64,000 nucleotides of DNA. Source: a virus. This document shows, in pieces, positions 417 through 19,281 of the stretch. The DNA lies in the IMG/VR virus record IMGVR_UViG_3300012147_000006, positions 64,001-128,000 of that record, one strand, 5' to 3'. The translations under genes and the position numbers were made by a program. The notes beneath the pieces were generated by a model. That model was given only the letters and a program-made list of their open reading frames with translations, did not search any database and was not told where the DNA came from. Every line of letters starts with the position of its first letter. Position 1 is the first letter of the stretch.

Positions 417-476
417 AATTTCTTTTATTTATTTGGTTATACCTATATAACGATAGGAATTTAAAAAGTTACAAAA

Positions 477-815
477 TCAATTCAATGTACATTCAAAATG
501 TTGCAATGCGTCTGCAATAGCATATTTTTCTGTATTACCTTTTGCTGACAAATGTACATTGTACTTTCCGCTATAAGGGTTACAGTTAAATTTACCTTTT
601 GCTTTGTCAACCTCTTCAAATCTACTGTAAACAGTATAAAGAAATTTTTGAGAGCCATACAGCGTAATATTCAACTTACCTGCAATTGTATTCAAAACAA
701 ATTGAGTATCACTAAACTCTTGCTTTACAATTGTTGCGCCCATATCTAATAAGCCCTTTTTAATTGCTTCAACAAAGTTGTTTTGTTTTTTTAGAGTAAT
801 ATTATCGTGTGCCAT
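477..815 (-). CDS. Hypothetical protein
   Basis: ORF between two class I elements. Confidence 0.8.
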   Translation of the reverse strand: MAHDNITLKKQNNFVEAIKKGLLDMGATIVKQEFSDTQFVLNTIAGKLNITLYGSQKFLYTVYSRFEEVDKAKGKFNCNPYSGKYNVHLSAKGNTEKYAIADALQHFECTLN

Positions 816-869
816 AATGTTTTTATTTGGTTATACCTATATAACGATATGAATTCAAAAAGTTACAAT

Positions 870-952
870 TCCATTCGTCATGATGATAGCACCAGACTTT
901 CGGGCAGGAGTGGATTACTCTTACGATAGGTAAAAAAGAAAACCTATCGGAC
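870..952 (-). ncRNA. Candidate small RNA
   Basis: Class I promoter at 958 with no ORF; CGATAGG/CCTATCG hairpin; 3' part resembles 12960-13040. Confidence 0.35.
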
Positions 953-988
953 ATTTGTATAACGATAGGTTTTCAAAAAGTTACAAAT

Positions 989-1138
989 CTAAATTTCGTT
1001 TCCGTCCTCATCAACTTCATAGCCCCGTGGGTTCTTAATATCTTCCTCCTCACATCTATCACAGTATGCAAGTTTTGGGTTTTCAGTATCTTTGCCTAAG
1101 TTGTTTCCACACTCAGGGTACGTTAAATCACAAGCCAT
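989..1138 (-). CDS. Small hypothetical protein (49 aa)
   Basis: Read manually: MACDLTYPECG...YCDRC...NEI*; directly follows 1141..1536. Confidence 0.6.
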   Translation of the reverse strand: MACDLTYPECGNNLGKDTENPKLAYCDRCEEEDIKNPRGYEVDEDGNEI

Positions 1139-1140
1139 AA

Positions 1141-1536
1141 TTATACAGTTTTTACGTTACTTAATTTTAGGTGAAAATTCTTATCACTAACTTGAAAGAA
1201 TTGGTCTTGAAGTTCTACTTCTCCTTCGTAAACTCCCACAATGTCAATCATGAAAATTCGAATTGTAGTCTTATCTTCTCTCAAAGGCACTTCATTGTTA
1301 CATGAGTAGTTGAGGTCATTTGGTTTGCAGAATTTTTTAATACCCCAAAAGTTGTTTGAAGTAATACTTGCATCTCTAATGGTAATACCATTTACAACCT
1401 TTCCCGTTAAAGAGTCTAAGTACTTTTTAAGCTCACGGTAAATGTAATTGTGCTTGCCTGCATTGGTCTTGTAGGTTTCGTATTTCTTTGGGCTTATGTA
1501 GAAGTCTATAATTGCTCCTGCTAATAATATTTTCAT
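1141..1536 (-). CDS. Hypothetical protein
   Basis: Start corrected to MKILLAG, downstream of the promoter at 1560. Confidence 0.75.
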   Translation of the reverse strand: MKILLAGAIIDFYISPKKYETYKTNAGKHNYIYRELKKYLDSLTGKVVNGITIRDASITSNNFWGIKKFCKPNDLNYSCNNEVPLREDKTTIRIFMIDIVGVYEGEVELQDQFFQVSDKNFHLKLSNVKTV

Positions 1537-1591
1537 AATGTATTGTTTGGTTATGTATGTATAACGATAGCAATTCAAAAAGTTACAAGAC

Positions 1592-1756
1592 ACAAAAAAG
1601 CCAGCGCTTAAAACCTCTTAAAAGCGCTGGCCTAAATTTGCATGGTCCCTAAAACCTCTTAAAGGCTTGATGCATGCGAGCGCTCGAAAAACGCATGGAC
1701 CATAGGTCCCACATCGTAATATATTTCAAAGTATCATGGTCCCTCTCTTGGTCCCT
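1592..1756 (-). ncRNA. Candidate small RNA with repeated GGGACC motifs
   Basis: Class I promoter at 1762, no ORF, four GGGACC copies, ends in a GCCAGCGCTT/AAGCGCTGGC-T6 terminator. Confidence 0.5.
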
Positions 1757-1817
1757 ACAAATATAACGATGAGAATCTAAAAAGTTACAACAGCTGAAGA
1801 AATTAATTTTTAATGCA

Positions 1818-1849
1818 CAAAAAAGTCCTTACTCAATAGTAAGGACTTT
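1818..1849 (-). terminator. Rho-independent terminator
   Basis: AAAGTCCTTACT/AGTAAGGACTTT inverted repeat plus T tract after 1866..2441. Confidence 0.8.
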
Positions 1850-1865
1850 CAATATAATATAATGT

Positions 1866-2441: not shown

Positions 2442-2619
2442 TCTTTTGGGTTTTAATTAATTTATTGGTTCATTTATATAACGATGAGTTATCAAAAAGT
2501 TACAAATTTCGTTGTGACCACTCTTTAGGTCAGTTTATTATTTCAGATTTGTACTTTTTGAATGGCTCGTTTGCTATTCTTGTTTGTATAACGATGGTAA
2601 TTTAAAAAGTTACAATTTC

Positions 2620-2925: not shown

Positions 2926-2979
2926 GTTTTTTTGTTTTTTGTTACAAGTATATAACGACATGAATTTGAAAAGTTACAA

Positions 2980-3447
2980 TTACATGCAACGCTCCATTGT
3001 TTTGTCGTCTTCAATTTCTTTTTGTTCAAGCAATTCAAGAATCTCATCAATAATGTCTTCCTCAAGCTCTTCGTAGCTCAAATCTCCTTCTGAAATTTCA
3101 GTTTCATTGTGGTAAGTAAAAATACCCACACCATCTGTCGAGAATCTTTCAACTAAAACTGAAATATTATTTCTGTTAGTTCCTGTGCTACTAATACAAG
3201 GAGAGCCATCTGCTTCAAGGTCGCAAGTTGACGTACTGTCATCACAACACTTTCTAAGAATTCTTTTTATCTCAGCAATCTTTTGGTCTTTTGAGGTTCC
3301 TACCTCTTCTACTGACAATGTGAATGAATGGGGTTTAAGTGTCATCTCATTCATTTCATCTCCACCAAGAACGTCACAGAATAAATCCATAAGCAAACTT
3401 GTTTGTGCATCCGTTAGGTCGCCAGTATTTATTGTTAATTTTTTCAT
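2980..3447 (-). CDS. Acidic hypothetical protein, probably leaderless mRNA
   Basis: ATG (MKKLTIN) is 5 nt after GTTATA of the promoter at 3453. Confidence 0.75.
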   Translation of the reverse strand: MKKLTINTGDLTDAQTSLLMDLFCDVLGGDEMNEMTLKPHSFTLSVEEVGTSKDQKIAEIKRILRKCCDDSTSTCDLEADGSPCISSTGTNRNNISVLVERFSTDGVGIFTYHNETEISEGDLSYEELEEDIIDEILELLEQKEIEDDKTMERCM

Positions 3448-3595
3448 ATTAGTATAACGATGAGGTTTCAAAAAGTTACAAATAGAAAAAGCCCAGAAGA
3501 ATTTCCTCTGAGCTCTAACTAATATAAATAACAAAACAACTGAATATGAAAACAATCGTTGTGTTAATATAATAAATTAGATATTAAAAATCAAG

Positions 3596-4190: not shown

Positions 4191-4192
4191 AG

Positions 4193-4694: not shown

Positions 4695-4842
4695 AATTTA
4701 TTTTTTGTGTTGAGTCACGCCAGCATCTTACTGGATAGATACGAGGTTAAGGGAATCGTACCAATACCGTTGCAGCATCTTAAATCAGTTCGCCTTTGGT
4801 TCTAAATATATAACGATAGGATTTCAAAAAGTTACAAAAGGC

Positions 4843-5139: not shown

Positions 5140-5188
5140 GTCTATGTGTTTTTTGGTTACAAGTGTATAACGATGAGTATTTAAAAAG

Positions 5189-5692
5189 TTACAAAGCTCT
5201 CAAATAATCAGCAACTTCTTGGTCATCTCCTTGAAGGCCAGAGGCGCTTTTGTTGCACCATAGTTCAGCGGCTTCATCCCAGAAGTAGTCATCTCCCATA
5301 ATCATGTCATCAGAATCCTCTTCGTCATATCCCAGACAGCTGCAAATTTCCTCATGACTTTGCCCCCAGTCTTCTCTAAATCTCTTAATTCTCTCTTTTG
5401 TTGGCTTATTCATCTTCACCCCTTCTCCAAATACGTGACTTCCAATTGAATCAATAAATTCTCCATCTACATCAAATAAATCTATGACCAAGAAGTCTTC
5501 ATCTTCAAATTTAACTTGCGTAAAAGAATTGTCCTCGTGAGTAAGGTACACATAATCTTCCACGCCCTCATCATGGTTTGCTTCTACAATTGTTCTCACA
5601 TCGTATTCTCTACTCTCTCCGAGTTTGGTTACTACAATGGTTGTTGGCGTGGTAATCTCAAGAACCCAGCCCTCATGTTCAAATTTTCTCAT
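5189..5692 (-). CDS. Acidic hypothetical protein
   Basis: ORF between class I elements; stop codon supplied by TTGTAA of the next element. Confidence 0.8.
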   Translation of the reverse strand: MRKFEHEGWVLEITTPTTIVVTKLGESREYDVRTIVEANHDEGVEDYVYLTHEDNSFTQVKFEDEDFLVIDLFDVDGEFIDSIGSHVFGEGVKMNKPTKERIKRFREDWGQSHEEICSCLGYDEEDSDDMIMGDDYFWDEAAELWCNKSASGLQGDDQEVADYLRAL

Positions 5693-5882
5693 ATCTTTTG
5701 TTTTAGTCTGGTGTTATAACGACCCAGATTTAAAAAGTTACAAAACACAAATACCCCAACTTGTAGGCTGGGGCATTCTGGACTGACAAATGGTTTTAAC
5801 CATTCAAACAAAAGTGGTAACCGCCATTATCGGCTACCTACGGAATGGGTACGAGACCCAGCAGAGGAGACAAACCCTCCAT

Positions 5883-6074: not shown

Positions 6075-6127
6075 CTGTGTGTTTTTTGGTTACAAGTGTA
6101 TAACGACACGAATTTAAAAAGTTACAA

Positions 6128-6303: not shown

Positions 6304-6699
6304 TTAAATTAAATGGTTTCCATTCAAATATTCTCTTGCACTCTCAAACTCTTCTTTGTACTCATCACTTTCAGAACTCTCAAAGTCAAATCCATTCTCA
6401 CTTGAAATGCTTTCCAATTCATCAACAACGTTACAGTGCATATAAATTGGCTCTTCATCTGAAATGTTCTCATCAACTTTATCACGAATCTCATCACTCA
6501 CTTCATTCTCAATCACGTAGTAAAGAGGTGTTAACTCATAAGAAGGTGTAATCTCACAAAGGTTTGTAGTTACAGAACTATCGTACATATAAACCGTTTC
6601 AATCTTTCCACAAGCATCTTGAAGTTGTTGTTTCCAAAATCTTGTTTCATCAATTGCTATTACTCTAATTTCGCTTTTTACTAATGTTGTAGTTTCCAT
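6304..6699 (-). CDS. Acidic hypothetical protein
   Basis: ORF after the promoter at 6725. Confidence 0.8.
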   Translation of the reverse strand: METTTLVKSEIRVIAIDETRFWKQQLQDACGKIETVYMYDSSVTTNLCEITPSYELTPLYYVIENEVSDEIRDKVDENISDEEPIYMHCNVVDELESISSENGFDFESSESDEYKEEFESAREYLNGNHLI

Positions 6700-6752
6700 A
6701 ATTTCTTTTTTTTGGTTATATCTGTATAACGATTAATTTTTAAAAAGTTACA

Positions 6753-6936
6753 AAAAAAGCCCAGAAGAAAATCCTCTGGGCTCTCATATTGTTCGTTATA
6801 TGCAATGTAAAAGTTTTATTAGTGTGTAACACCACCCTTGCAATTATACAGCATATAACACTGTTCAACACCGTTGCCATAAGTGTTTTAATAGTAGGTA
6901 TCACCATTCTACCATTATATGAACATATCGTTTCCT
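6753..6936 (-). ncRNA. Candidate structured small RNA (~180 nt)
   Basis: Promoter at 6942, 5' AGGAAACG, several hairpins, GCCCAGAGGA/TCTTCTGGGC-T terminator, no convincing ORF. Confidence 0.45.
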
Positions 6937-6970
6937 ATTTGTATAACGAAATCAATTTAAAAAGTTACAA

Positions 6971-7252
6971 TTATCTTCTTCTATGGCTAAAATTTCTTTT
7001 TTTAGCCAAATGTTTACCTTTTTGTTTTGTTTCTCTAAATTTAGAAAATGGAACTTTATCTGGTTCAATAAAAACCTCTGGCATTTCTAAAATATCATTT
7101 CTGGTAATTAGAAATACTTCTGGCTCTGGCTCAAAAACATTCTTAACGTCATCAACTACTATGGTATAGCCTTGCTCCATTGCAAGTTCCATCAAAGCTA
7201 ACTTTGCACCAGCAGAACCACCGCTACCGCATCCCACAACAACTACATTCAT
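6971..7252 (-). CDS. Hypothetical protein
   Basis: ORF with ATGA overlap; N-terminal VVVVGCG motif only, no full Rossmann domain. Confidence 0.65.
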   Translation of the reverse strand: MNVVVVGCGSGGSAGAKLALMELAMEQGYTIVVDDVKNVFEPEPEVFLITRNDILEMPEVFIEPDKVPFSKFRETKQKGKHLAKKRNFSHRRR

Positions 7253-7584
7253 ATTGCTACGTTTGTGTAAAACATGAACATTCTCTCGTCATTCATGTGA
7301 ACCCAGACATGACTTCTGGTTCTTCCACATTCAAACTTTCCTGTTCTTTTTGCAGTATCAGAATTACAGAAAGTTCTGCAATCAATCAGCATCTTATCCA
7401 GAACTTCATCATCAAATGCTTTTGTATGTTCGTCTGGCTCTTCCTCTCTGGCAATTTGCAATTCAGCAATTCCCGTATTGTTCCAGAATCTCATACATTC
7501 AAGTAAGTTTCTTGAAATGTAGTTAGACGCACCTTTGAAGGCGTTCTCTACTTTAATTTCTACTATCTGTGTCTGTGTGTCCAT
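7249..7584 (-). CDS. Hypothetical protein, probably leaderless
   Basis: ATG (MDTQTQ) is 5 nt after GTTATA of the promoter at 7590. Confidence 0.75.
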   Translation of the reverse strand: MDTQTQIVEIKVENAFKGASNYISRNLLECMRFWNNTGIAELQIAREEEPDEHTKAFDDEVLDKMLIDCRTFCNSDTAKRTGKFECGRTRSHVWVHMNDERMFMFYTNVAI

Positions 7585-7686
7585 ATCTGTATAACGATGG
7601 TTTTTTAAAAAGTTACAAAAAGCGAAAGAGGATAACAACCTCAGTCATTACCCTCTCTCTATGTTCATAACCAAACAAACAAATAT

Positions 7687-8136
7687 CTATTTTTGCAACT
7701 TGTTTTTCAAGTCCAATAATCCCATATAGCCAAGTTCGTTTTCGTCACATTTTCTGTCGCTAATGTTATTATTAATCAATTGCAAAACTGCTGTTAATTC
7801 TCTATCAGTAAATTCTAATTGAGTTTTATCATTTACATCTTCTATTGGTGTAAATGCGTCCACTATTTCGCAAAGTTGTTCAAACTCAATTCCACTATGT
7901 GCATAACTGTAACCGCTTTCGCTAATCAATGCGTATGGAGAAACTGCAACAACATAAGTTGAAGCTCCATCAATGTTGTACATCAATTCATCATCTTTGC
8001 CGTTTTCTAATTTTAGAACGTTCTCGCTGACAACATTGCTTTTTACTCCTATCCCTTTTGTATTAACAAGTTCAATTATTTTCTGAATAACCTCTTGCTC
8101 AATTTCCTCTAATTTATCTTTAAATCCTTTTGCTAT
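7687..8136 (-). CDS. Hypothetical protein (start uncertain)
   Basis: Frame is open 50 codons upstream of the listed start, to ATA-GCA-AAA just downstream of the promoter at 8161. Confidence 0.6.
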   Translation of the reverse strand: MAKGFKDKLEEIEQEVIQKIIELVNTKGIGVKSNVVSENVLKLENGKDDELMYNIDGASTYVVAVSPYALISESGYSYAHSGIEFEQLCEIVDAFTPIEDVNDKTQLEFTDRELTAVLQLINNNISDRKCDENELGYMGLLDLKNKLQK

Positions 8137-8189
8137 TGCTTTAGTGTTTTTAGTTATGTTTATAACGATTTGTTTTTAAAAAGTTACAA

Positions 8190-8438: not shown

Positions 8439-8488
8439 GTCTTAAAGTTTTATTGGTTATGTTTGTATAACGATTTGTTTTTAAAAAG

Positions 8489-8830
8489 TTACAATATATT
8501 AATAATCTTTTTTGTCTTCTCTAAATCAGGCAATCCGTTGAACTCTCTTGAAAGTTCTTTGTAGTTCTTTACCAAGTACTCAAGCGTAATTACTTGCACG
8601 TAATTGTATTTATCTCCATACACCAAAATTGCGTGGTATCTATCAGAATAAAGTTCGTTGAACTCCTTAACTCCATCAAACAACATATCAGAATTTGAAT
8701 CCTTTGTTGCTTCATCATAGAACTTTCCAAATGCAATGGTAGATTTTTCTTCCTCTTCCTCCTGACGTTCTTCTGCTAAGTCCCATAGCACCACAGACTT
8801 CAGGTCTTTAAATAATTTTCGCTTACTCAT
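8489..8830 (-). CDS. Hypothetical protein
   Basis: ORF; stop lies in TTGTAA of the next element. Confidence 0.75.
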   Translation of the reverse strand: MSKRKLFKDLKSVVLWDLAEERQEEEEEKSTIAFGKFYDEATKDSNSDMLFDGVKEFNELYSDRYHAILVYGDKYNYVQVITLEYLVKNYKELSREFNGLPDLEKTKKIINIL

Positions 8831-9005: not shown

Positions 9006-9085
9006 GTTATAATGTTTTTGTTACAAGTGTATAACGATGAGTATTTAAAAAGTTACAAGCTGACGCTTTTCCGCTTCGCTTACAA

Positions 9086-9508: not shown

Positions 9509-9543
9509 ATCTGTATAACGATTGAAGTTTAAAAAGTTACAAT

Positions 9544-10225: not shown

Positions 10226-10303
10226 AAGTTGTTATATTAATTTGTTACAATTATATAACGATGCGAATTTAAAAAGTTACAAACTAACGTTTTTCAGCTT
10301 TGC

Positions 10304-10934: not shown

Positions 10935-10937
10935 ATC

Positions 10938-11156: not shown

Positions 11157-11241
11157 CTTGTTATGTTTTGGTTACATAAGTATAACGATGAATATTTAAA
11201 AAGTTACAAAAAAGCCCCCAAACTAATTGAGGGCTTTTGTT

Positions 11242-11559: not shown

Positions 11560-11618
11560 AATTTCCTTTTGTTTATTGGTTACATAGGTATAACGACACG
11601 AATTTAAAAAGTTACAAA

Positions 11619-11894: not shown

Positions 11895-11950
11895 AATTTT
11901 ATTTTTATTTGGTTATATCTGTATAACGACAGTAATTTAAAAAGTTACAA

Positions 11951-12211
11951 TTACCAACCCATATTGGCTTCGGCTTGTTTTGCCATTCCTTTTGCAAGGT
12001 GCAACAAATAGTCAAATACATCTCCATTATGAAAATCTATTTTTACAAGCATTGTACGAATTTCTTTTTGCATCTCATTAGGAATGCCTTCAATGAATTC
12101 TATAAGGTTTTGGTATGTAATCCCAATGTGACCTTCAATTTTAATTTCAGCATCAACACTTTTACCTTTCTCTTCAATTAAATTTGCTAGGTATGTCTTA
12201 ATTTCGCTCAT
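11951..12211 (-). CDS. Hypothetical protein
   Basis: ORF between class I elements. Confidence 0.8.
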   Translation of the reverse strand: MSEIKTYLANLIEEKGKSVDAEIKIEGHIGITYQNLIEFIEGIPNEMQKEIRTMLVKIDFHNGDVFDYLLHLAKGMAKQAEANMGW

Positions 12212-12265
12212 TGTCTTTATGTATTGGTTACATAGGTATAACGATAGGAATTTAAAAAGTTACAA

Positions 12266-12643
12266 TTAGTCCAGTCTAAACTTTCTGGCTATTTCTTTGT
12301 GCATTTCTGGCTTAATTACAACATAGTTATTTGAACCTCCTGAATAATCTTTGTTGTGTTTTGCTGTACGAACTAACATTTCTGGCTCATTGTTTCTATT
12401 AAAACCGAATCCACCTCTAACATCTGAAATTGAGAAGTAATAAAATTGCTCATCAACTTTAAAAAATCCGCTCAATCCAAAATGACCTTTACTAAATTCA
12501 ATACTTGTTGCTGCAATGTTTAACAACTCTTTTGTAAACTCTTTTTTGAATAATCTGAAGAATTTATTAAACTCATCAGAGTTTCTTGAACTGCTTCCAA
12601 AATAATTAATTCCTCCTAATAAGTTCTGTACAATCGTTTTCAT
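12266..12643 (-). CDS. Hypothetical protein
   Basis: ORF between class I elements. Confidence 0.8.
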   Translation of the reverse strand: MKTIVQNLLGGINYFGSSSRNSDEFNKFFRLFKKEFTKELLNIAATSIEFSKGHFGLSGFFKVDEQFYYFSISDVRGGFGFNRNNEPEMLVRTAKHNKDYSGGSNNYVVIKPEMHKEIARKFRLD

Positions 12644-12690
12644 ATCTTTTTTGTTTGGTTATATCTGTATAACGAAATTAATTTAAAAAG

Positions 12691-12906
12691 TTACAATCTA
12701 CTTGGAACAAATGAAGGTGAATTTATTTTTTGAATGGCTAAATCTTTCATTGACTCGTCATTACCTCTAACGCCTTCAAACTCTTCTGTTGTAACGTGAA
12801 CAAACACAGGAAACATTTCTCCTTTAAATACAGGTGTCAAGTCACGTCCGCCCTTTGCACTTCTTAATGCACGTATTGAACGGATGTTTTCTTTCTTAAT
12901 TTCCAT
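12691..12906 (-). CDS. Hypothetical protein
   Basis: Start corrected to MEIKKE; stop lies in the next element. Confidence 0.75.
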   Translation of the reverse strand: MEIKKENIRSIRALRSAKGGRDLTPVFKGEMFPVFVHVTTEEFEGVRGNDESMKDLAIQKINSPSFVPSRL

Positions 12907-12959
12907 GTCTTTTGTATTGGTTACAAGCATATAACGATAGTAATTCAAAAAGTTACAAT

Positions 12960-13040
12960 TTCATTCGTCATGACGAACAAGGAAAATATAAGGCAGGTTG
13001 GAGTCTACTCTTCCGACTTATAAAGCCAGGCCCGTTTCCT
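12960..13040 (-). ncRNA. Candidate small RNA, paralog of 15913-15989
   Basis: Promoter at 13046, no ORF; shares AGGAAAC..GGGC and CGGAAGAGTAGACTCCAAC with the second copy. Confidence 0.5.
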
Positions 13041-13257
13041 ATTTGTATAACGATACGATTTCAAAAAGTTACAAATCACGTTTTTCCCGCCCCTTGTGAG
13101 GACGAGTTATGATTAGGAAAAATCAGGTCTGCTCTTGCAGTTGTTAATCTCTGTTTTTTGGAAGTTCAGACTTTGCTGTATCAGAATCTTTTTTTCATGG
13201 CTTCTTTATTTTATTGGTTCTTATCTGTATAACGACTGTATTTTAAAAAGTTACAAT

Positions 13258-13443
13258 TTAATCCTCTTCAAGGTCTTCTTCAAATTCTTCAGCCAATTCA
13301 ATCAAATAATCACCCTCCAAATTTTCGCCAACTTCAAATCCTGGATACACCCCAACTTCTTGACCATTCTTTTCAATTAACATACCGTCCTCTATGTTTG
13401 AAAAAATGTACTTATCTAATCCGCTAAAAATTATTCTTTTCAT
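13258..13443 (-). CDS. Small acidic hypothetical protein
   Basis: Start corrected to MKRIIF. Confidence 0.65.
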   Translation of the reverse strand: MKRIIFSGLDKYIFSNIEDGMLIEKNGQEVGVYPGFEVGENLEGDYLIELAEEFEEDLEED

Positions 13444-13718
13444 TTCTGTTGTTTTTATGTTGTCACACATTAAAACTACGCTTCGCTATTGCTAACACGT
13501 TGTATAAGTAATTGCTCCTCCAACCATTTAACATACCTATCGCTAAATAATACATCATTAAAATGAGGTTCAGACCAACATTTATTATAGGTCTTTTTCT
13601 CAAATTCATCTCTTAATTTCTCTTGTTCTTCTTCCAATTTCTTTAGTTTTTAATTCAGAAACTACTCATACAACCATCTGTTACAGCAGTATAACGATGA
13701 GGTTTTAAAAAGTTACAA

Positions 13719-13901
13719 TTAAAACTTAACTACTGTACACCCTTCTCTATCCGTCCACCACAAAGTCTTTTGAACTCCGTTGCCCATTGTCACCACAACG
13801 GCATCCATAATCTCATCATTCTTTGCTGAACCAACTGAATCTACTGTGTAATCAGTTCCATAAAATTTAATTTGAGAGCCTTGTTGTACTGGATTTGTCA
13901 T
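13719..13901 (-). CDS. Small hypothetical protein
   Basis: Start corrected to MTNPVQ, downstream of the promoter at 13925. Confidence 0.7.
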   Translation of the reverse strand: MTNPVQQGSQIKFYGTDYTVDSVGSAKNDEIMDAVVVTMGNGVQKTLWWTDREGCTVVKF

Positions 13902-14003
13902 GTCTTTTGTTTTGGTTACATCTATATAACGATGAATGTTTAAAAAGTTACAAACTAAAAAAGAGGACATAAGCCCTCTTAATTATCGTATATTCAAGAA
14001 ATA

Positions 14004-14192
14004 CTAAGCTGGTATTATCATTATTTCTTTGTTTTTAATACCAGCATACTTAATTGCAATACCTAATAACTCAGCTTCTTCGTTTGCAAAAGCTTCTTGA
14101 GTTAATAAAATTGTTCCTTCATCTCCAGAACAGGCTTTTACGAATTCTGGTAATTCTTTTTCTACTTTTTTTATTACTTCTTGATTTGACAT
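14004..14192 (-). CDS. Small hypothetical protein
   Basis: Start corrected to MSNQEV, downstream of the promoter at 14219. Confidence 0.7.
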   Translation of the reverse strand: MSNQEVIKKVEKELPEFVKACSGDEGTILLTQEAFANEEAELLGIAIKYAGIKNKEIMIIPA

Positions 14193-14324
14193 ATTTTTTG
14201 TTTTATTGGTTATATCTATATAACGATGACATTTTAAAAAGTTACAGAAATGCGAAAAGGCAGGGTAACAACTCCCTGCCTTCTCTATTTGTAACATTGT
14301 AACATATAACAAACAATAATATTT

Positions 14325-14594
14325 TTAGTTCTGGTTCACCTTCTGGACTAACATCTCTAAGGTATCCCTGACCAGCTCCGAGCTGGTAATTTTTTCTTTT
14401 GTCTTCAGGACGGTCTTCTGGTCTTGCTTCAGGTCATCCTTAAAACTTACCTGAACATCCGACTCCTGTATCCTGTATTCACCAGCAATCATGGTTTTGT
14501 ATCCGTCAATCACATCCTGTCCAGTACATCCCCTGTACTCTATCTGGTACACCTGCTGGTCATCAATGGTGAATACTATCCAAGCCCTGTTCAT
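14325..14594 (-). CDS. Hypothetical protein
   Basis: ORF with ATGA overlap. Confidence 0.7.
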   Translation of the reverse strand: MNRAWIVFTIDDQQVYQIEYRGCTGQDVIDGYKTMIAGEYRIQESDVQVSFKDDLKQDQKTVLKTKEKITSSELVRDTLEMLVQKVNQN

Positions 14595-14908
14595 AATTTC
14601 ACGCCTGTAATTCTAACTACTTTGTTGCTGGAGAAATCACCTTCAAAAAGTTCTTCAAATAACGCCTCCTGCTCATTAATAGCGTAAACCTCATCCCAGT
14701 TGACATATAACACAGGCGTTTCACCGTCCATCTCAATATACACCCTTCCCTGTCTGCCTCTACCTTCGTTCTTGTCGTCATCAGCATCAAAGAATCCGTC
14801 ATACTGCTGGTTTCTTAGAATGAATCTCATTGCAGCCTCAAGCTCCTGAACCTTTGCGGCTATGGTTGCTTTTGCCCACTCTTGTAAATCTTTCTTTGCT
14901 GTTTTCAT
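14591..14908 (-). CDS. Hypothetical protein, probably leaderless
   Basis: ATG is 5 nt after GTTATA of the promoter at 14914. Confidence 0.8.
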   Translation of the reverse strand: MKTAKKDLQEWAKATIAAKVQELEAAMRFILRNQQYDGFFDADDDKNEGRGRQGRVYIEMDGETPVLYVNWDEVYAINEQEALFEELFEGDFSSNKVVRITGVKL

Positions 14909-14936
14909 ATCTGTATAACGATTCAGGTTTAAAAAG

Positions 14937-15266
14937 TTACAAAGGGAGAGTTATAAAATTGTCATCTCCCATAATAAAATCATTCTTTGTAGCGCACACA
15001 TCCACTTTGTATCCCAAGCCCATAAGTTCTTCCAGAGCTTTTGCTGAATTATACACCTGCTCCTTCTGGTTAAGTCTGTGAGAAATCTCTGGCATCAGGT
15101 AAATTACTTGGTCTGGCTTCTCACCTTTCATTGAGGCTGGTAACCCATCTCTTTCCCACGCTCTAACATTGCTCATGCTGAATTTGCATACAACAATATA
15201 ATTAGTCCTATCATTGAACTCTAACCCTATCAAAAGTTCTTTTAATATGTTTAAAATATCTTCCAT
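14937..15266 (-). CDS. Hypothetical protein
   Basis: TAATG coupling; stop lies in the next element. Confidence 0.75.
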   Translation of the reverse strand: MEDILNILKELLIGLEFNDRTNYIVVCKFSMSNVRAWERDGLPASMKGEKPDQVIYLMPEISHRLNQKEQVYNSAKALEELMGLGYKVDVCATKNDFIMGDDNFITLPL

Positions 15267-15610
15267 TAGTCCAGTATAATTTTTTTAGTTAATGGCATAT
15301 TTAAAGCCTCTTCCAGTTCATTTATTTCTACCAGTAATTCCTCTTTCAAAACCTCAACCCTATCCATCTTCGTTGGAAATCTTGAAGCGTCTTTCTCAAT
15401 CATTTGAGTTTTATCTGTATTCTGAATTCTGCCAGTATGGTATCCGCCTGCTTCATTAAGGTAAATTACTTTATTGTTTGTCAACGCCTCCAAATAAACA
15501 TCCATTGCTCTGTTGGTCATGTTCATATGCTTCAGGGCAAATTCCAGTTCCTCTGCGGTTCTAATAATCAGCCAGTAACATCCGTTGCTAAATCCAAATA
15601 AAAATTTCAT
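15266..15610 (-). CDS. Hypothetical protein
   Basis: ORF after the promoter at 15634. Confidence 0.75.
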   Translation of the reverse strand: MKFLFGFSNGCYWLIIRTAEELEFALKHMNMTNRAMDVYLEALTNNKVIYLNEAGGYHTGRIQNTDKTQMIEKDASRFPTKMDRVEVLKEELLVEINELEEALNMPLTKKIILD

Positions 15611-15656
15611 AATTGTCTTGTTGGTTATGTATGTATAACGACACAGTTTTAAAAAG

Positions 15657-15869
15657 TTACAAAGACTTTAATACATCATTGACTTTGAAAAACCAATGTT
15701 GTGTGAACTTATGTTCACTGTCATTTACAAGAGAGAGTATTCCATCCTTTATGACCACCTCACGCTCACTGTATCCCCACTTAGGGCAGGTTAAGTAATT
15801 TCCATCAGGCAAAGCATTATCCATTGCCTTAGCGTTTAATTCTGCGTTGGGTGTCTGCGTTAGTTTCAT
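15657..15869 (-). CDS. Hypothetical protein, probably leaderless
   Basis: ATG is 5 nt after GTTATA of the promoter at 15875; stop lies in the next element. Confidence 0.75.
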   Translation of the reverse strand: MKLTQTPNAELNAKAMDNALPDGNYLTCPKWGYSEREVVIKDGILSLVNDSEHKFTQHWFFKVNDVLKSL

Positions 15870-15912
15870 ATCTGTATAACGATGAGGTTTTAAAAAGTTA
15901 CAAGGGAGAGTT

Positions 15913-15989
15913 TTAAAAAAAGAGGGCGTGTTGGAGTCTACTCTTCCGCCATTTTTGAAATGTCATGCCCGTATCAGTTTCCTACCTAC
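15913..15989 (-). ncRNA. Candidate small RNA, paralog of 12960-13040
   Basis: Promoter at 15995, no ORF, conserved 19-nt block, T-rich 3' end. Confidence 0.5.
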
Positions 15990-16106
15990 ATTCATATAAC
16001 GATGGTTATTTAAAAAGTTACAACGCTTCGCTCGTTCGGGGCAAACAAAGAAAAGGGAGACTTTTCAGCCTCCCCTTATTGTCGTAACCACACAAACAAT
16101 AATCTC

Positions 16107-16685
16107 TTAATAGTTCTGTATCTGTGTTAGTGCATACTTTTCGGTGTATCTTCCGTTGTTGTGTTCGTTACAACATTTTCCACAAGCACTAATTCTTTTC
16201 TTCTTTTTGTGACTCGCACTTTTTTTCCCGCATCCATTTTCACAAACTAATGTGTATTTACTTTGAGTGTCGCTAATGTCCTCCGACTTGTAGCATCTTT
16301 CTGCGGTGCAAAGTACTTTTCTTGCTATTGCTTTCCACACGTTGTTGTGGTGGTTTCTTCCTCCCATTGCTCCATCAAGTGCGTGCGCTAATTCGTGACG
16401 CAATGTGTTTTCAAATTCTAATCCTTTGCTTAAGTTTTGAGTTACCAAATACTTTGAAAGGTAAATCGTTTTGTTTCTGTAATTACAAAGACCTGCTGCT
16501 CTTTTTCTTGAATTATACTCAAACTTCCACCCCAATTCTTTTAAGTTAATAACACTTGCTTCTTTGAAACTGTAAATATCAATTGTCCAAATCGTTGCAA
16601 GTAATCTGTTTGCTAATCTTTCAAGTTCTCCAAGGGTTGTCTTACAGTTTTCCTCGAAGTGCATTTCTTTTGTTAAGTCTTTCAT
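16107..16685 (-). CDS. SprT-like zinc metalloprotease
   Basis: RAAGLC, LRHELAH, HHNNVWK and a C-terminal Cys cluster. Confidence 0.85.
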   Translation of the reverse strand: MKDLTKEMHFEENCKTTLGELERLANRLLATIWTIDIYSFKEASVINLKELGWKFEYNSRKRAAGLCNYRNKTIYLSKYLVTQNLSKGLEFENTLRHELAHALDGAMGGRNHHNNVWKAIARKVLCTAERCYKSEDISDTQSKYTLVCENGCGKKSASHKKKKRISACGKCCNEHNNGRYTEKYALTQIQNY

Positions 16686-16866
16686 TGTCGTTGTTTTTAT
16701 GTTACATACATATAACGATACGATTTCAAAAAGTTACAATTTCTTTCTCTGCGCTTTTCTCTTCTCTCTGCGCTTTTCTTTTCCACACTTTGGAATGTCA
16801 AAGTTTTTGGTGGTTCTACCCTCATCACTATAAGGGTTTGTTATGTAATAAATTTTATCAACCATC

Positions 16867-17259
16867 TTATCCAAAAATTACTTCTCCATATAAACAGTGC
16901 TGAAGCAATTCAGTAGCCGTTATCGCATCATCCCCCTCTTCTTTGTAGGTCAACACTATTTCAGACGCATCTTCATTGCTAAGGGCTTCTATCGCACCCT
17001 CAAGCGTGAATTCTAACGCTTCATCCCCCTCATAGTCAAAAAACTGTAAAGGCTTTCCGCTTTTAAGAATTTGAGCGTAAATGTCCTCACGACACGGGCT
17101 ATTGTCATTCTCTGCGTTCCAAGTGTTTTTCGCTTCCTCATAGTCCTCTTGAACTATGTTTAATCGAACCGAACACATTGCGAGTTCGCTTAACCCTCCG
17201 TTGCAAAGTGCGTTATGCACCATCTCTAAAACTTCTACTTTATCTAAAATAATTTTCAT
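16867..17259 (-). CDS. Acidic hypothetical protein
   Basis: ORF after the promoter at 17284; ends LYGEVIFG. Confidence 0.8.
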   Translation of the reverse strand: MKIILDKVEVLEMVHNALCNGGLSELAMCSVRLNIVQEDYEEAKNTWNAENDNSPCREDIYAQILKSGKPLQFFDYEGDEALEFTLEGAIEALSNEDASEIVLTYKEEGDDAITATELLQHCLYGEVIFG

Positions 17260-17316
17260 GTCTTTTGTTTTTGGTTACAAGTGTATAACGATACGATTTC
17301 AAAAAGTTACAATTAT

Positions 17317-17580
17317 CTAAGCTTCAAAATCTCCAATATATAATTTTCCATTTTGAAAACTTGGCTCATATTCTCCATGCTCTGCTTCCATGTCATCAGT
17401 TTCAAAAAACGTGCTATCTGCCGCTTTCTCTAATTTGTGGCATACACATATAACAACTGACATATCTCCTTGCATTGGGTGCTCAAAGAACTCTATCTCT
17501 TGACCCTTTGAGTTTGTCATTGCTCCGTAGCTTGTCGGGTTATGCTCCATTAATTTTTCGTACTTATAATGCTTTGCCAT
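17317..17580 (-). CDS. Hypothetical protein
   Basis: ORF between class I elements. Confidence 0.8.
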   Translation of the reverse strand: MAKHYKYEKLMEHNPTSYGAMTNSKGQEIEFFEHPMQGDMSVVICVCHKLEKAADSTFFETDDMEAEHGEYEPSFQNGKLYIGDFEA

Positions 17581-17630
17581 TTTGTTTGTCTTTATTGGTT
17601 ACAAGTGTATAACGAAATGAATTTAAAAAG

Positions 17631-17873
17631 TTACAAAACGTTTGCAAGGTTTGTGAAATATGCAAAATCAATTAACATCATTTCTTTTTGTGCCACGGGG
17701 AGAGTTGCAAAATTTGGTGAGCAAATCATATCGCCCAAGGCTTGCATTTTTTGTATTGTCTGAGCTTGTAAGTGACCCGTAGGCATTTCGCCCATTTGTT
17801 GAGGTTGGGGAGAGTTTTGTCCTTCTAACTCTTCTGCTTGTCTTTTTGACGGTGTGTTGAATCCTATTGCCAT
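17631..17873 (-). CDS. Hypothetical protein
   Basis: ORF between class I elements; stop lies in the element. Confidence 0.7.
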   Translation of the reverse strand: MAIGFNTPSKRQAEELEGQNSPQPQQMGEMPTGHLQAQTIQKMQALGDMICSPNFATLPVAQKEMMLIDFAYFTNLANVL

Positions 17874-17930
17874 TTTGTTTATCTTTATTGGTTACATAGA
17901 TATAACGATAGCAATTCAAAAAGTTACAAT

Positions 17931-18149
17931 CTAATTAGGGAGAGTTTCAATGCGTTCTAAGGTGTTTTTATCTACTGAGTAAGGCTGGCTATGCCCGTTA
18001 CCTTTTAAGACCAATACAATAGGTATTGGGGAGAGTTCTAATAGTATTCCATGCACAGTAACGCCATCGCCAATGCCACACGTACCAACTGCCTTAACAA
18101 GTCCGCCAATCATCTTTTTTGCATCTTCTAATAATACTATCTTTGCCAT
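17931..18149 (-). CDS. Hypothetical protein
   Basis: ORF. Confidence 0.6.
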   Translation of the reverse strand: MAKIVLLEDAKKMIGGLVKAVGTCGIGDGVTVHGILLELSPIPIVLVLKGNGHSQPYSVDKNTLERIETLPN

Positions 18150-18217
18150 TAGGGAGAGTTTCTAAGTTTATAAAAAAAAAGGGGAGCAATTCGCCCCCCT
18201 CGTTGTTGTTTCGTTTC

Positions 18218-18787
18218 TTATCCCTCAATTAGGTACATATTACCATTCATATTGAAAGAAATTAAGTTGTTAAAGTCAAGCGTTCTGAAAAAGAAGTTAT
18301 TTTCTTCGTTAATCGTTCCACGTCCTGCAACTGCATTTGGTTTCAATCCCGCAGGTGTAATGTAAGTATCATTCCAAACATCTTTACGGTCAACTAACTT
18401 TCCATCTAAAATCAATTGTGTTTGTGGCTTTGAATGTCCTTCAACAATGAATACTAAGTATCTTTTTTCTTGTGTCTTTGTGTCCATACACACTGGGTTT
18501 CCTTCTGAAACATAATCTTTACCTCTCATTGGTTGCGCTTCAAAAACAATTTCCTTTCCCTCTCTGTCAAGAATTTTGTTAACTTTCTTTGCATAATCAC
18601 TCCCTATTGTTGCGTTCGTTTCAACCATTTTCTGTAAAACTTTCTTACCTTTTACAGTTTTAGACTTTGACTCGTCTACTAAGTATGCAATGTTTGAAAA
18701 TGCTACACCCGAAGCCGAAACTTCTTTTTTGTAGTTAGTGAACATTGTTACTGCTTGGTCTCTTGTAATTCTTACTAAATTTTTCAT
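18218..18787 (-). CDS. Hypothetical protein
   Basis: ORF after the promoter at 18817; terminator at 18171-18200. Confidence 0.85.
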   Translation of the reverse strand: MKNLVRITRDQAVTMFTNYKKEVSASGVAFSNIAYLVDESKSKTVKGKKVLQKMVETNATIGSDYAKKVNKILDREGKEIVFEAQPMRGKDYVSEGNPVCMDTKTQEKRYLVFIVEGHSKPQTQLILDGKLVDRKDVWNDTYITPAGLKPNAVAGRGTINEENNFFFRTLDFNNLISFNMNGNMYLIEG

Positions 18788-18816
18788 AATGTTTGTTTTA
18801 TTATTGGTTACATACT

Positions 18817-18943
18817 TATAACGATATGTTTTTAAAAAGTTACAAAATCAAATTTCTACCTTAGAAAGTTCGCTTACTTTCTTATACGCAAATAAAAATT
18901 AATGTTCTATATCTTTGTAACTTTTTGAATTTTGGTCGTTATA
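18817..18943. promoter_or_regulatory. Divergent pair of class I promoters (strand switch point)
   Basis: Minus copy 18817-18844 precedes 18218..18787(-); plus copy 18916-18943 precedes 18972..19232(+). Confidence 0.85.
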
Positions 18944-18971
18944 TATATGTAACCAATAAAAACATTAAAAG

Positions 18972-19232
18972 ATGATTGATTTAACGCAAGAGCAAAAGAA
19001 CAAAATTCAGGAGAATACTGTAAGAGATTCAGGAGTCATTTGCTTTGAAGAGTACCATTCAGCTGACGGTGAAGTAACAGTAACCAATATTAATATTAAC
19101 AAGCAGCCTGGATTCTATGCCGACAGGGTATATACCTTAAAAAACAAAAACAAAAACATTCTTGTCTCTAAAAGCGCTGGTGATATTCTTGATGAATATA
19201 CAAAGATAATGCTTGTAAAATTAAAATTGTAA
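18972..19232 (+). CDS. Hypothetical protein
   Basis: ORF between the two plus-oriented class I elements; stop in TTGTAA. Confidence 0.8.
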   Translation: MIDLTQEQKNKIQENTVRDSGVICFEEYHSADGEVTVTNININKQPGFYADRVYTLKNKNKNILVSKSAGDILDEYTKIMLVKLKL

Positions 19233-19281
19233 CTTTTTAAATTCCTGTCGTTATATTAATGTAACCAAACAAGTAGAAATT

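Follow-up and report, generated by a model that had tools for sequence, protein, structure and literature searches.

A repeated element, probably an ECF-type promoter read by a phage-encoded sigma factor, delimits an array of small variable units in a viral genome

The window, a stretch of 64,000 nucleotides from the genome of a large uncultured phage (positions 64,001 to 128,000 of record IMGVR_UViG_3300012147_000006), opens with a row of short units separated by copies of a 28-bp element (Table 1). The original prediction had counted 43 copies at a fixed spacing, and all of them match TGTAACTTTTT-N9-TCGTTATA where they had been placed, with 0 mismatches, against 0.16 occurrences expected by chance in the window. 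The - strand carries 41 of these copies and the + strand 2, and the orientation flips within the divergent pair at 18817-18844 and 18916-18943, exactly where the coding strand flips, as had also been noticed. The array had been given as 19 kb within the window, and here the prediction fell short: a scan of the whole 142-kb record (G000) detected 74 copies over G000 39419-83255, that is -24581 to 19255 in window coordinates, and a 75th copy lies on an overlapping contig (G001) that brings the recovered sequence to 170 kb.

Element positions 1-10 and 21-28 do not vary among the 75 copies, and positions 11, 13 and 14 are conserved in 74 of them. The conserved block is longer than the 28 bp first proposed, since it includes a T at position -1 (73/75 copies), a pyrimidine 5 nt after the element (74/75), a purine 6 nt after it (75/75) and, in about half of the units, a TAACCAA-type leader following this pyrimidine-purine step. 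The element can be divided into a -35 part (TGTAAC), a T5 tract, a 15-nt spacer between AAC and CGT, and a -10 part (CGTTATA). AAC, T tract and CGT form the signature of ECF sigma factors. Published promoters of this type combine AAC and CGT with a T tract located around -30 to -26 and a spacer of 14-17 bp, so that 15 nt stands at the short end of the range; they deviate little from their consensus, and sigW controls its own expression (PMC5758882). Within each genome, conservation extends to the spacer half TTTTTAAAT, beyond what sigma contacts alone explain, which may reflect homogenisation or another factor. Transcription probably begins at the invariant purine that follows the element by 6 nt. 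An ATG falls exactly there in 10 units, where about 1.4 are expected from the ATG frequency; all ten begin ORFs of at least 70 aa, and a fixed position of the ATG relative to the element is also seen in relatives.

Table 1. Features of the array in the window. Element, ECF-type promoter element; distances to an ATG are counted from the end of the element.
Feature	Position	Strand	Detail	Basis
Array	446..19255		portion of the promoter-delimited array lying in the window	motif matches and whole-genome scan
Element	446..473	-		exact motif match
Element	840..867	-		exact motif match
Element	958..985	-	heads 90-nt ORF-less unit	exact motif match
Element	1560..1587	-		exact motif match
Element	1762..1789	-	heads 174-nt ORF-less unit ending in terminator-like hairpin	exact motif match
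Element	2477..2504	-		exact motif match
Element	2587..2614	-	heads 82-nt ORF-less unit	exact motif match
Element	2951..2978	-	sole copy with C at position 11	exact motif match
Element	3453..3480	-	ATG of ORF 2980-3447 exactly 5 nt after, leaderless candidate	
Element	4809..4836	-		exact motif match
Element	5166..5193	-	own TAA is stop of ORF 5189-5692	
Element	5715..5742	-		exact motif match
Element	6099..6126	-		exact motif match
Element	6725..6752	-	second TAA (positions 11-13) is stop of ORF 6740-6907	
Element	6942..6969	-		exact motif match
Element	7590..7617	-	ATG of ORF 7249-7584 5 nt after, leaderless candidate	
Element	8161..8188	-		exact motif match
Element	8466..8493	-	own TAA is stop of ORF 8489-8830	
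Element	9030..9057	-		exact motif match
Element	9514..9541	-	ATG of ORF 9086-9508 5 nt after, leaderless candidate	
Element	10254..10281	-		exact motif match
Element	11181..11208	-		exact motif match
Element	11589..11616	-	right-hand boundary of ORF replacement relative to L052	
Element	11922..11949	-	L052 homology stops 31 nt after, at ATG of ORF 11619-11894	
Element	12237..12264	-		exact motif match
Element	12668..12695	-	own TAA is stop of ORF 12691-12948	
Element	12930..12957	-		exact motif match
Element	13046..13073	-	heads sRNA-family unit	exact motif match
Element	13228..13255	-	heads 154-nt ORF-less unit	exact motif match
Element	13690..13717	-		exact motif match
Element	13925..13952	-		exact motif match
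Element	14219..14246	-		exact motif match
Element	14914..14941	-	TAA stops ORF 14937-15266; ATG of ORF 14591-14908 5 nt after	
Element	15634..15661	-	own TAA is stop of ORF 15657-15869	
Element	15875..15902	-	ATG of ORF 15657-15869 5 nt after	
Element	15995..16022	-	heads sRNA-family unit	exact motif match
Element	16711..16738	-	precedes SprT-like gene	exact motif match
Element	17284..17311	-		exact motif match
Element	17608..17635	-	own TAA is stop of ORF 17631-17873	
Element	17901..17928	-		exact motif match
Element	18817..18844	-	first of - strand array, one of divergent pair	
Element	18916..18943	+	71 bp from divergent partner	
Element	19228..19255	+	own TAA is stop of ORF 18972-19232	
ORF-less unit	12958..13045	-	second window member of candidate sRNA family	
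ORF-less unit	15903..15994	-	candidate sRNA family, U-rich tail	
SprT-like metalloprotease gene	16107..16685	-	192 aa, only window cassette with Pfam domain	
Terminator-like hairpin	14254..14285	-	directly upstream of element 14219-14246	
Terminator-like hairpin	3488-3516			
Terminator-like hairpin	5749-5778			
Terminator-like hairpin	7624-7659			
Terminator-like hairpin	13961-13980			
Terminator-like hairpin	16052-16077			

The units are packed end to end. The intergenic space is almost wholly element and leader, about a third of the units directly adjoin the preceding gene's stop codon, and of 40 window ORFs that lie upstream of an element, 24 have their end within that element or 0-6 nt short of it. 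The seven stops that TTG-TAA of the element had been said to provide are real, and an eighth ORF (6740-6907) ends on the second TAA of its element. Some units are preceded by a terminator hairpin, found at only about 7 of the 41 - strand window copies. The description of the cargo as unrelated and mostly orphan also held: only 2 paralogous pairs were found among 101 array ORFs, and a Pfam search of the 20 largest window ORFs gave a single match, the SprT-like gene, which we used as query to find relatives. A PHROGs search of the cargo returned a few families without known function, besides families of HNH endonucleases and a single DNA-binding family. Among the ORF-less units, two in the window belong to a conserved candidate sRNA family with the core GGGC..GGAAGAGTAGACTCCAAC..GCC. 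Promoter and leader (about 45-60 bp) are the only sequence common to different units and to related phages.

The same genome encodes a putative reader of the element. An ECF sigma gene (213 aa; G000 44568-45209, - strand) lies inside the array, 19 kb outside the window, and its ATG follows a copy of the element at a distance of 29 nt. The ORF matches Pfam Sigma70_r2 (56.9 bits) and r4_2 (21 bits) and NCBIfam TIGR02937 (sigma70-ECF; 80.9 bits for a cut-off of 42.9), its best equivalog match is SigW, its best PDB match is Bacillus subtilis SigW (5wuq, E 4.6e-17), and an identical protein is encoded on a 364-kb contig. The proposal of an ECF-type promoter is therefore supported by the signature, by a cognate sigma gene behind one of the copies and by the invariant purine 6 nt after GTTATA. 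No anti-sigma gene was evident, and no host-type promoter, from which the first sigma might be made, was found upstream of the sigma gene.

In relatives, the repeated motif changes together with the sigma factor. Sigma factors with 71, 68, 60 and 50% identity to that of G000 are found in lineages whose repeated motifs are TGTAAC..TCGCTATA (L040), TGTAACTTTTACCT..TCGTTATG (L043), TGTCAC..TCGTTATA (L057) and TGTGAT..GTTGTTAGAG (L056), respectively, and L053, with an unrelated sigma (31%), carries TCCGAC..TCGTTAT. Over five orthologous sigma lineages, the repeat thus drifts with sigma divergence (TGTAAC, TGTCAC, TGTGAT); it differs between close phage relatives and is uniform within each genome. 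In six lineages, the sigma gene stands just behind the motif of its own lineage.

We then compared the units with those of related phages. L052 is colinear with the window, whole units being present or absent, with a nucleotide identity of 81-99% per unit. Of 15 L052 homology blocks, 8 start no more than 10 nt from where an element begins (chance 0.043 per block) and 9 end 0-45 nt after an element (chance 0.094), 7 starts and 6 ends lying away from elements, with the caveat that homology blocks necessarily run through any conserved element. At window ORF 11619-11894 the swap is exact from ATG to stop: L052 has a 199-aa ORF there, and the boundaries lie 1 nt before one element and 31 nt after another. 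Sister metagenome contigs hold 134 complete units, of which 66 are missing from the present array, and the 42 neighbour pairs that could be mapped comprise 20 adjacent, 16 that skip forward and 6 backward. Blocks of 60-97 nt with 73-87% identity are common to different units. The idea of an accessory library with the element as recombination handle stands as far as whole-unit gain, loss and ORF-for-ORF replacement with boundaries at elements above chance are concerned, but not as free shuffling, since the order is mostly kept. The differences between relatives look like turnover in place, a pattern that fits homologous recombination, as for the PeSLs of T4-type phages.

We consider it likely that the elements are promoters for the phage-encoded ECF sigma and probably also provide homology for recombination between units. 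That they would be read by a host ECF sigma, the phage sigma serving another promoter class, is improbable: the motif fits the generic ECF consensus and no route was found for making the first phage sigma, but the motif tracks phage sigma divergence between close relatives, the sigma gene lies behind the motif of its own lineage, and the 170 kb showed no further repeat of ECF-like type. A dimeric phage regulator using the TGTAAC/GTTATA half-sites as an operator had been envisaged from the imperfect inverted repeat with 16-nt spacing present in this genome. This seems most unlikely, as the symmetry is absent in the TCCGAC..CGTTATG, TGTGAT..GTTGTTAGAG and TGTCAC..CGTTATA lineages, which keep the architecture, and as the element without exception points the same way as the downstream gene, its distances to the pyrimidine-purine step and to the ATG being fixed.

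The elements could be promoters only, the breakpoints fitting them because end-to-end genes let only rearrangements between genes survive. The close packing of ORF ends and elements agrees with this, as does the fact that about 40% of block ends lie away from elements, and breakpoints at elements may partly reflect selection for intact genes, because the blocks extend through elements and the intergenic space is nearly all element. We nevertheless regard this reading as unlikely, given that the replacement boundaries coincide with the edges of the conserved block, that the identity of adjacent units to L052 varies as widely as expected from crossovers between them, that different units have blocks in common, and that recombination between such modules has been physically shown for PeSLs (PMC2839356). 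A site-specific system, integron-like as originally proposed or of another kind, with its recombinase in the unrecovered part of the genome, would account for a one-directional array of unrelated small ORFs with a repeated boundary element and heavy turnover, and the genome is indeed incomplete (170 kb recovered, compared with the 364-kb contig bearing the identical sigma protein). We give it very little credence, however: neither a tyrosine nor a serine recombinase was found in 170 kb (Phage_integrase and Resolvase domains searched), the element does not fold into an attC-like hairpin (MFE 0 to -1.8 kcal/mol, no better than shuffles), relatives do not retain its dyad symmetry, each unit carries a promoter of its own that faces the gene at a fixed distance, and unit order is mostly conserved.

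The array resembles several known systems. PeSLs (promoter-early stem-loops) are about 50 repeated promoter modules concentrated in hyperplastic regions of T4-type phages, mostly directly upstream of ORFans, with the stop codon of the upstream gene at the module edge and some copies fused to terminator hairpins; where close relatives differ by an insertion, deletion or replacement, the change maps to a module (PMC2839356; PMC4122927). This organisation recurs here, although PeSLs are early promoters for the host sigma-70, whereas the present element has ECF character and its reader is apparently a sigma made by the phage, hairpins are rarer, and a TAACCAA leader or no leader takes the place of a Shine-Dalgarno sequence. 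The host is probably a member of the Bacteroidota. As in the sigma-W regulon of B. subtilis, whose promoter is tGAAACnTTTt ... CGTA (PMC5758882), AAC in the -35, an adjoining T tract and CGT in the -10 adhere closely to a consensus, and the sigma gene, best matched by SigW in family and structure, lies behind its own promoter. Unlike sigma-W, the sigma here is phage-encoded without visible anti-sigma partner, would have at least 75 targets, whose promoters all agree at 20 positions and have a 15-nt spacer, and these targets are unknown small genes and RNAs instead of envelope-stress functions. Phage sigmas with private bipartite promoters are known from Salmonella phage 7-11 (gp47, GTAAtg-N16-aCTA) and phiEco32 (gp36); they redirect the host core polymerase to a phage-specific consensus, with starts 6-9 nt after the motif, and diverged sigmas of related phages use different consensus sequences (PMC8948821). 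The present phage would share the dedicated sigma, the phage-specific consensus and its change with sigma divergence, but the 6-8 promoters of 7-11 and phiEco32 serve late or middle structural operons, in contrast to about 75 promoters in a variable array, each for one small accessory gene, and here the regulon includes the gene for the sigma itself. Integron arrays are likewise one-directional rows of small, unrelated, mostly unknown genes with a repeated separator and high turnover, but they differ in having an integrase, foldable attC sites and one Pc instead of a promoter on every unit, and the order here is largely conserved.

Taken together, each element would act as an ECF-type promoter, most likely read by host core RNA polymerase carrying the phage-encoded SigW-like sigma. 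With the sigma gene itself preceded by a copy of the element, the circuit would reinforce itself once some sigma is made. The early host-takeover or anti-defence role first suggested for the cargo is a guess, and promoters that depend on a sigma supplied by the phage would rather belong to a delayed or middle class than to the immediate early one. At least 75 units would be driven in this way, most of them with the conserved RUAACCAA leader ahead of a small unknown gene; ten appear leaderless, and several may encode small RNAs. Promoter and leader probably also serve as homology for ordinary homologous recombination, which would explain whole-unit deletion, insertion and ORF-for-ORF replacement with the order kept. 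The array would then be a new case, on a large scale, of two strategies already known from phages, promoters for a sigma factor of the phage's own and gene swapping at repeats.

The original prediction described 43 copies of a 28-bp element in the window, and a pattern search with TGTAACTTTTT-N9-TCGTTATA recovered all of them at the claimed sites, each with 0 mismatches, against 0.16 copies in shuffled sequence. Forty-one copies lie on the minus strand and the last two (18916 and 19228) on the plus strand, confirming that the orientation of the element flips with the coding strand. The upstream gene was said to end usually near the next element, which holds for 24 of the 40 window upstream ORFs, whose ends fall inside the element or at most 6 nt away. 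For all seven ORFs proposed to take their last codon and stop from the TTG-TAA of the element, this was confirmed, and ORF 6740-6907 is one further case, its stop being the second TAA (element positions 11-13). The proposed scan of the whole genome showed that the array extends beyond the window. The 142,155-bp virus record containing the window (G000) holds 74 copies, all between 39419 and 83255, and nothing similar elsewhere; an overlapping second contig (G001) contributes one further copy, giving a total of 75 in 170 kb. The copies are concentrated, with 75 in 44 kb and none except one in the other 126 kb.

To read the anatomy of the element, the 75 copies were aligned together with the sequence on either side. 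No variation occurs at positions 1-10 and 21-28, and positions 11, 13 and 14 are conserved in 74 of the 75 copies; TGTAAC and CGTTATA are the same in every one of them, and AAC is directly followed by TTTT in 75/75 and by TTTTT in 74/75. The conserved block exceeds 28 bp, since a T precedes the element in 73/75 copies, the base at +5 after it is a pyrimidine in 74/75 and the base at +6 is a purine in 75/75. In about half of the units, the block is continued by a leader, (A/G)TAACCAA(A/T)AAA, and the ATG follows the element at a distance of 22-31 nt. The ATG lies exactly at the invariant purine in ten units (about 1.4 expected from ATG frequency); all ten open ORFs of at least 70 aa, and this fixed ATG position recurs in relatives. 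ECF (extracytoplasmic-function) promoters carry AAC in the -35 and CGT in the -10 with spacers of 14-17 bp, their recognition is modulated by a homopolymeric T tract at -30 to -26, close adherence to the consensus is typical of them, and sigW has an autoregulatory promoter (PMC5758882). The element shows these sequence features, with AAC, T5, CGT and 15 nt between AAC and CGT, so that the earlier identification of an ECF-sigma promoter pattern is borne out; sigma-70-like sites in the region are not enriched (65 vs 66.9 in shuffles). Because the pyrimidine-purine step stands at a fixed distance from the -10-like box and sometimes provides the A of the start codon, it looks like a transcription start, and it sits at the start position given in the original prediction. 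A start at the invariant purine would put CGT at about -12 to -10. Taken from sequence, the promoter reading of the element appears well supported. The leader starts where the transcript is predicted to begin, about 17-20 nt ahead of the ATG, and is found in all related loci.

The genome was also searched for an ECF sigma gene, as had been suggested, and one was found inside the array, 19 kb beyond the window. Pfam Sigma70_r2 matched this single gene in 170 kb (56.9 bits), with Sigma70_r4_2 on the same ORF (21 bits). The ECF superfamily model TIGR02937 scored 80.9 bits against a cut-off of 42.9, SigW models were matched over the full length of the models, and among solved structures B. subtilis SigW came out best (PDB 5wuq, E 4.6e-17), likewise as a full-length match. 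Having regions 2 and 4 only, the ORF corresponds to a group-4 sigma. An element lies 29 nt ahead of its ATG in G000, which places the sigma gene behind its putative own target promoter.

Sigma homologues are numerous in metagenomes, and the same synteny is kept around every one that was fetched (ParB-like, a 325-365-aa protein, small ORFs, sigma, DUF932 and an 81-aa ORF), a RecA-superfamily ATPase being also present in most of these loci. Within a genome the repeat is uniform, and every genome has a version of its own. The G000 sigma (100%) goes with the motif TGTAACTTTTTAAAT..TCGTTATA, and among loci from related phages and metagenome contigs, sigmas 71%, 68%, 60% and 50% identical to it go with TGTAACTTTTTAAAT..TCGCTATA (L040), TGTAACTTTTACCT..TTCGTTATG (L043), TTGTCACTTTTAAAA..ATCGTTATA (L057) and TGTGATTTTTGAGAA..GTTGTTAGAG (L056), respectively. 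Locus L053 has a different sigma (31%) and the motif TTCCGACTTTTAA..TTTCGTTATG; a SprT-like protein 87% identical to that of the window places this locus in the same phage group. In all six of these genomes, the sigma gene stands directly behind the motif of its own lineage. Since the motif follows the phage lineages, a host sigma as the reader of the element could not account for the tracking, and this co-variation is the strongest argument that the phage sigma would be what reads it. In the L055 lineage, a host-type TAnnTTTG-like module precedes the same leader, which indicates that promoter and leader are separable parts and that the leader, kept even there, may have a part in translation or in the handling of RNA, in a host that does not use Shine-Dalgarno sequences. 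In L052, a close relative of the window array, the TCGTTATA and TCGCTATA versions of the -10 are mixed within one array (6701-18276); presumably a single sigma recognises both, or two lineages recombined recently to give this array.

If the cargo depends on a sigma made by the phage, it would belong to a delayed expression class, and the early host-takeover or anti-defence role put forward for it is a guess. No multisubunit RNA polymerase domain of the phage was detected; a 717-aa protein is annotated as a putative RNA polymerase in one record, and its comparison with solved structures gave no significant match. No convincing host-type promoter for the sigma gene was seen in G000 45200-50200, and the first sigma might come via weak recognition by a host ECF sigma, via read-through or via virion delivery. 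Two neighbours of the sigma gene were also noted. The 302-aa RecA-superfamily ATPase matches KaiC/DnaB_C/AAA_25, with weak PHROG matches to UvsX-like and Sak4-like proteins; its reading frame closes on the second TAA in the promoter element of the sigma gene. This ATPase is kept in most relatives examined and relocated after DUF932 in L056, and it is possibly a recombination protein. The 48-aa proline-/lysine-rich protein is the most conserved of the neighbourhood (89-95% identity in lineages with sigma only 50-71%) and could be a polymerase- or sigma-associated factor.

Coordinates of features in and around the array and in related loci (G000, 142-kb record; L-numbers, related loci)
Feature	Sequence	Coordinates	Strand	Remark
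ECF sigma gene, 213 aa	G000	44568-45209	-	Pfam Sigma70_r2 + r4_2
RecA-superfamily ATPase, 302 aa	G000	45254-46162	-	directly upstream of sigma gene
Proline-/lysine-rich protein, 48 aa	G000	46431-46577	-	two genes upstream of sigma gene
SprT-like ORF	window	16107-16685		Pfam match
Leader, examples	window	420-445, 815-839, 11560-11588		
Candidate small-RNA family	window	12958-13045	-	
Candidate small-RNA family	window	15903-15994	-	
Candidate small-RNA family	G000	53278-53373		beyond window
Candidate small-RNA family	G000	44086-44341		beyond window
Candidate small-RNA family	G000	39447-39571		beyond window
Candidate small-RNA family	L053	~6550-6640		
Candidate small-RNA family	L054	~9280-9370		
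Candidate small-RNA family	L054	~13970-14060		
Candidate small-RNA family	L054	~19230-19320		
Candidate small-RNA family	L055	~7910-8000		
Candidate small-RNA family	L055	~9770-9860		
Candidate small-RNA family	L057	~18650-18740		
IS605 OrfB/TnpB-like gene	L056	11321-12514		PF01385, PF07282
Motif AACTCTCCC(T)	window	10317, 10417, 14950, 15910, 17704, 17814, 17944, 18035, 18158	-	overall G000 38282-82158
Host-type promoter-like sites	G000	59469, 56110, 39970	-	in array, outside window
Palindrome TTCTAAATTTAGAA	G000	1-39000, 83300-142155		outside array, incl. window 19300-64000

The cargo had been described as unrelated small orphan ORFs, and this largely stands: there are only 2 paralogous pairs among 101 array ORFs, a count on which tandem duplication was rejected as the origin of the array, and the 20 largest window ORFs gave a single Pfam match, to a SprT-like domain. 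PHROG matches of the cargo comprise several function-unknown families, HNH endonuclease families and one DNA-binding family. Among the ORF-less units, we found a candidate small-RNA family of conserved, promoter-driven units of about 55-75 nt with a U-rich tail and the core GGGC..GGAAGAGTAGACTCCAAC..GCC, in its fuller form GGGC..(hairpin)..GGAAGAGT(A/G)GACTCCAAC..GCC. The family recurs in L040, L052, L053, L054, L055 and L057; a model with three helices reaches 93% pairing and shows compensatory changes in its middle helix (helix 2), and two members, at G000 44310 and in L040, have an extra inserted hairpin. Rfam gave no family at gathering level in the window, with chance-level matches only around the ORF-less units, and ARAGORN found no tRNA.

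Relatives of the window array were found via the SprT-like cassette protein. One of them, L052 (SprT-like protein 84% identical), carries 28 elements over 18.5 kb that run colinear with the window: the units match window units 0, 3, 4, 8, 10, 12, 13, 16, 18, 19, 20, 24, 27, 28, 35, 39 and 40 in the same order, with 81-99% nucleotide identity per unit. Ten L052 units are missing from the window array, and 24 of the 41 minus-strand window units have no L052 counterpart. Homology blocks start at most 10 nt from an element start in 8/15 cases (chance 0.043 each) and end 0-45 nt after an element in 9/15 (chance 0.094). In one ORF-exact swap, the homology stops at the ATG of 11619-11894, which is replaced in L052 by a 199-aa ORF, and picks up again 1 nt ahead of the next element. 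JGI metagenomes scanned with the exact motif yielded 57 stretches, about 40 of them with at least 2 copies, mostly short contigs from a few sample-id series including that of the source record. In those contigs, 66 of 134 complete units have no counterpart in this array, and the 42 consecutive mapped pairs comprise 20 that are adjacent here, 16 forward skips and 6 backward pairs, 4 of which involve paralogous small-RNA units. More distant relatives are mostly colinear too, with few translocations. Content turns over fast, order does not, and the boundaries lie at promoter-leader modules. The proposed shuffling at elements is thus retained as gain, loss and replacement of units bounded at elements, while order is mostly conserved. 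Since the conserved elements extend any homology block and there is hardly any other intergenic DNA, selection for intact genes could yield part of the signal, and the reading of the element as a recombination handle would be moderately supported.

Loci L038 and L039 are the same phage as G000 and were left out of this comparison. Assemblies of this phage from other samples break at or near elements (L038 1-28 and 9063-9090), and the array is recovered mostly as short contigs (1-6 kb) in other samples; such breaks fit repeat-induced breaks, population heterogeneity of the array, or both. One array unit of L056, near the sigma neighbourhood, is an IS605 OrfB/TnpB-like gene.

The array had been likened to an integron. 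Integron cassettes are promoterless and served by one common promoter with IntI beside the array, whereas here every unit comes with a promoter-like element of its own, set at a constant distance from the start codon, and neither PF00589 (tyrosine recombinase) nor PF00239 (serine recombinase) was matched in G000 and G001 (170 kb of an incomplete genome), in agreement with the earlier statement that the window encodes no recombinase. Nor does the element fold like attC, with an MFE of 0 to -1.8 kcal/mol and z-scores of -1.1 to +1.0 and so no hairpin of its own. The integron-like system was rejected on these grounds, and the analogy holds only for appearance. The TGTAAC/GTTATA dyad, proposed as the site of a dimeric protein or recombinase, is missing from several lineage variants, which makes the palindromic look incidental, and this reading was rejected as well. 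A closer parallel is offered by PeSLs, the promoter-early stem-loop modules of T4-type phages, which show the same turnover pattern with boundaries at promoter modules (PMC2839356). As with PeSLs, a repeated promoter module lies directly upstream of single genes in an ORFan-rich variable region, and where close relatives differ by an indel or a replacement, the difference falls at the modules. Unlike the host sigma-70-like early promoter of PeSLs, the element has the ECF signature. As for a stem-loop in the module, the element itself does not fold, and terminator-like hairpins stand directly upstream of about 7 of the 41 minus-strand window elements (23 in the region in total, 8.3 expected). 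We therefore describe the system, as far as sequence can tell for this and all other readings, as a probable phage sigma regulon with PeSL-like modular exchange.

Other repeated motifs were observed. The strand-polar motif AACTCTCCC(T) lies in ORFs in several frames, between genes, and just upstream of promoters in L040, L053 and L054; the array strand has 33 copies of TCTCCCT and the opposite strand 0, and a processing, termination or Chi-like signal are guesses at its role. Three host-type promoter-like sites share TTTGGTA..N..TAC(A/C)TTTG and precede genes of longer units, so the array mixes two promoter classes. Outside the array, the 14-bp perfect palindrome TTCTAAATTTAGAA recurs, with 6 copies of its 12-bp core TCTAAATTTAGA in one flank and 8 in the other, and 5 copies of each of the 12-mers that extend to its ends; AAATGTTCTATTT is likewise recurrent there, and these repeats may mark another regulatory class.

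The window covers bases 64001-128000 of the record (34.5% G+C). G001 (88 kb) is identical in reverse to the first 60.6 kb of G000 and extends the sequence by 27.7 kb. CheckV completeness of the two records (65% and 36%), together with a protein identical to the phage sigma on a 364-kb contig, indicates that they are part of a large, probably jumbo, phage. No structural family was found among the ORFs of at least 300 aa (20 in the 142-kb record) screened against Pfam or PHROGs. Judged by the 717-aa protein, Cellulophaga phages phi4:1 and phi17:2 come closest among named relatives; the motif is missing from both and from a 462-kb uncultured phage related by the same protein. Megablast of the array against named phages gave no match, and the remainder of the window matched in a 90-nt NAD synthetase stretch only; in IMG/VR, neither the motif nor a relaxed form of it occurred in any other phage, and a search there for close sigma relatives returned the same phage only. 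The Cellulophaga phage relatives, a homologue of one cassette protein deposited under a Bacteroidota bin, host-type TTTG/TAnnTTTG promoter-like sites and A-rich leaders ahead of start codons point to a host that is probably a member of the Bacteroidota.

To our knowledge, phage transcription has been little studied in Bacteroidota. A tentative and rather doubtful proposal is that a widespread group of large phages, probably infecting Bacteroidota, would run an exchangeable accessory genome through a self-reinforcing private ECF sigma circuit with co-evolved, mutually incompatible lineage codes. If so, the codes would be TGTAAC, TGTCAC, TGTGAT and TCCGAC, the sigma having co-evolved with all of at least 75 promoters; co-infecting relatives and the host would be unable to express each other's cassettes, and identical promoter-leader modules within a lineage would let genes and small RNAs be swapped singly as plug-in units, so that a natural set of orthogonal sigma-promoter pairs would be linked with a gene library shared by the population. 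Two known phage strategies would be joined, a private sigma factor and promoter modules doubling as exchange points for accessory genes, on the unusual scale of about 75 near-identical promoters and in an uncultured phage group that is apparently common in metagenomes. What this case contributes beyond the known types is a sigma gene within the regulon it probably serves, a series of lineages and a comparison of units at population level. The lineage series would be a natural experiment in which an ECF sigma and its whole regulon shift specificity together, and synthetic biology could draw orthogonal parts from its sigma-promoter variants. Cases for Shine-Dalgarno-free translation initiation would come from the RUAACCAA leader and from the ATG fixed at the predicted start, and the conserved small-RNA family may be a new candidate phage regulator.
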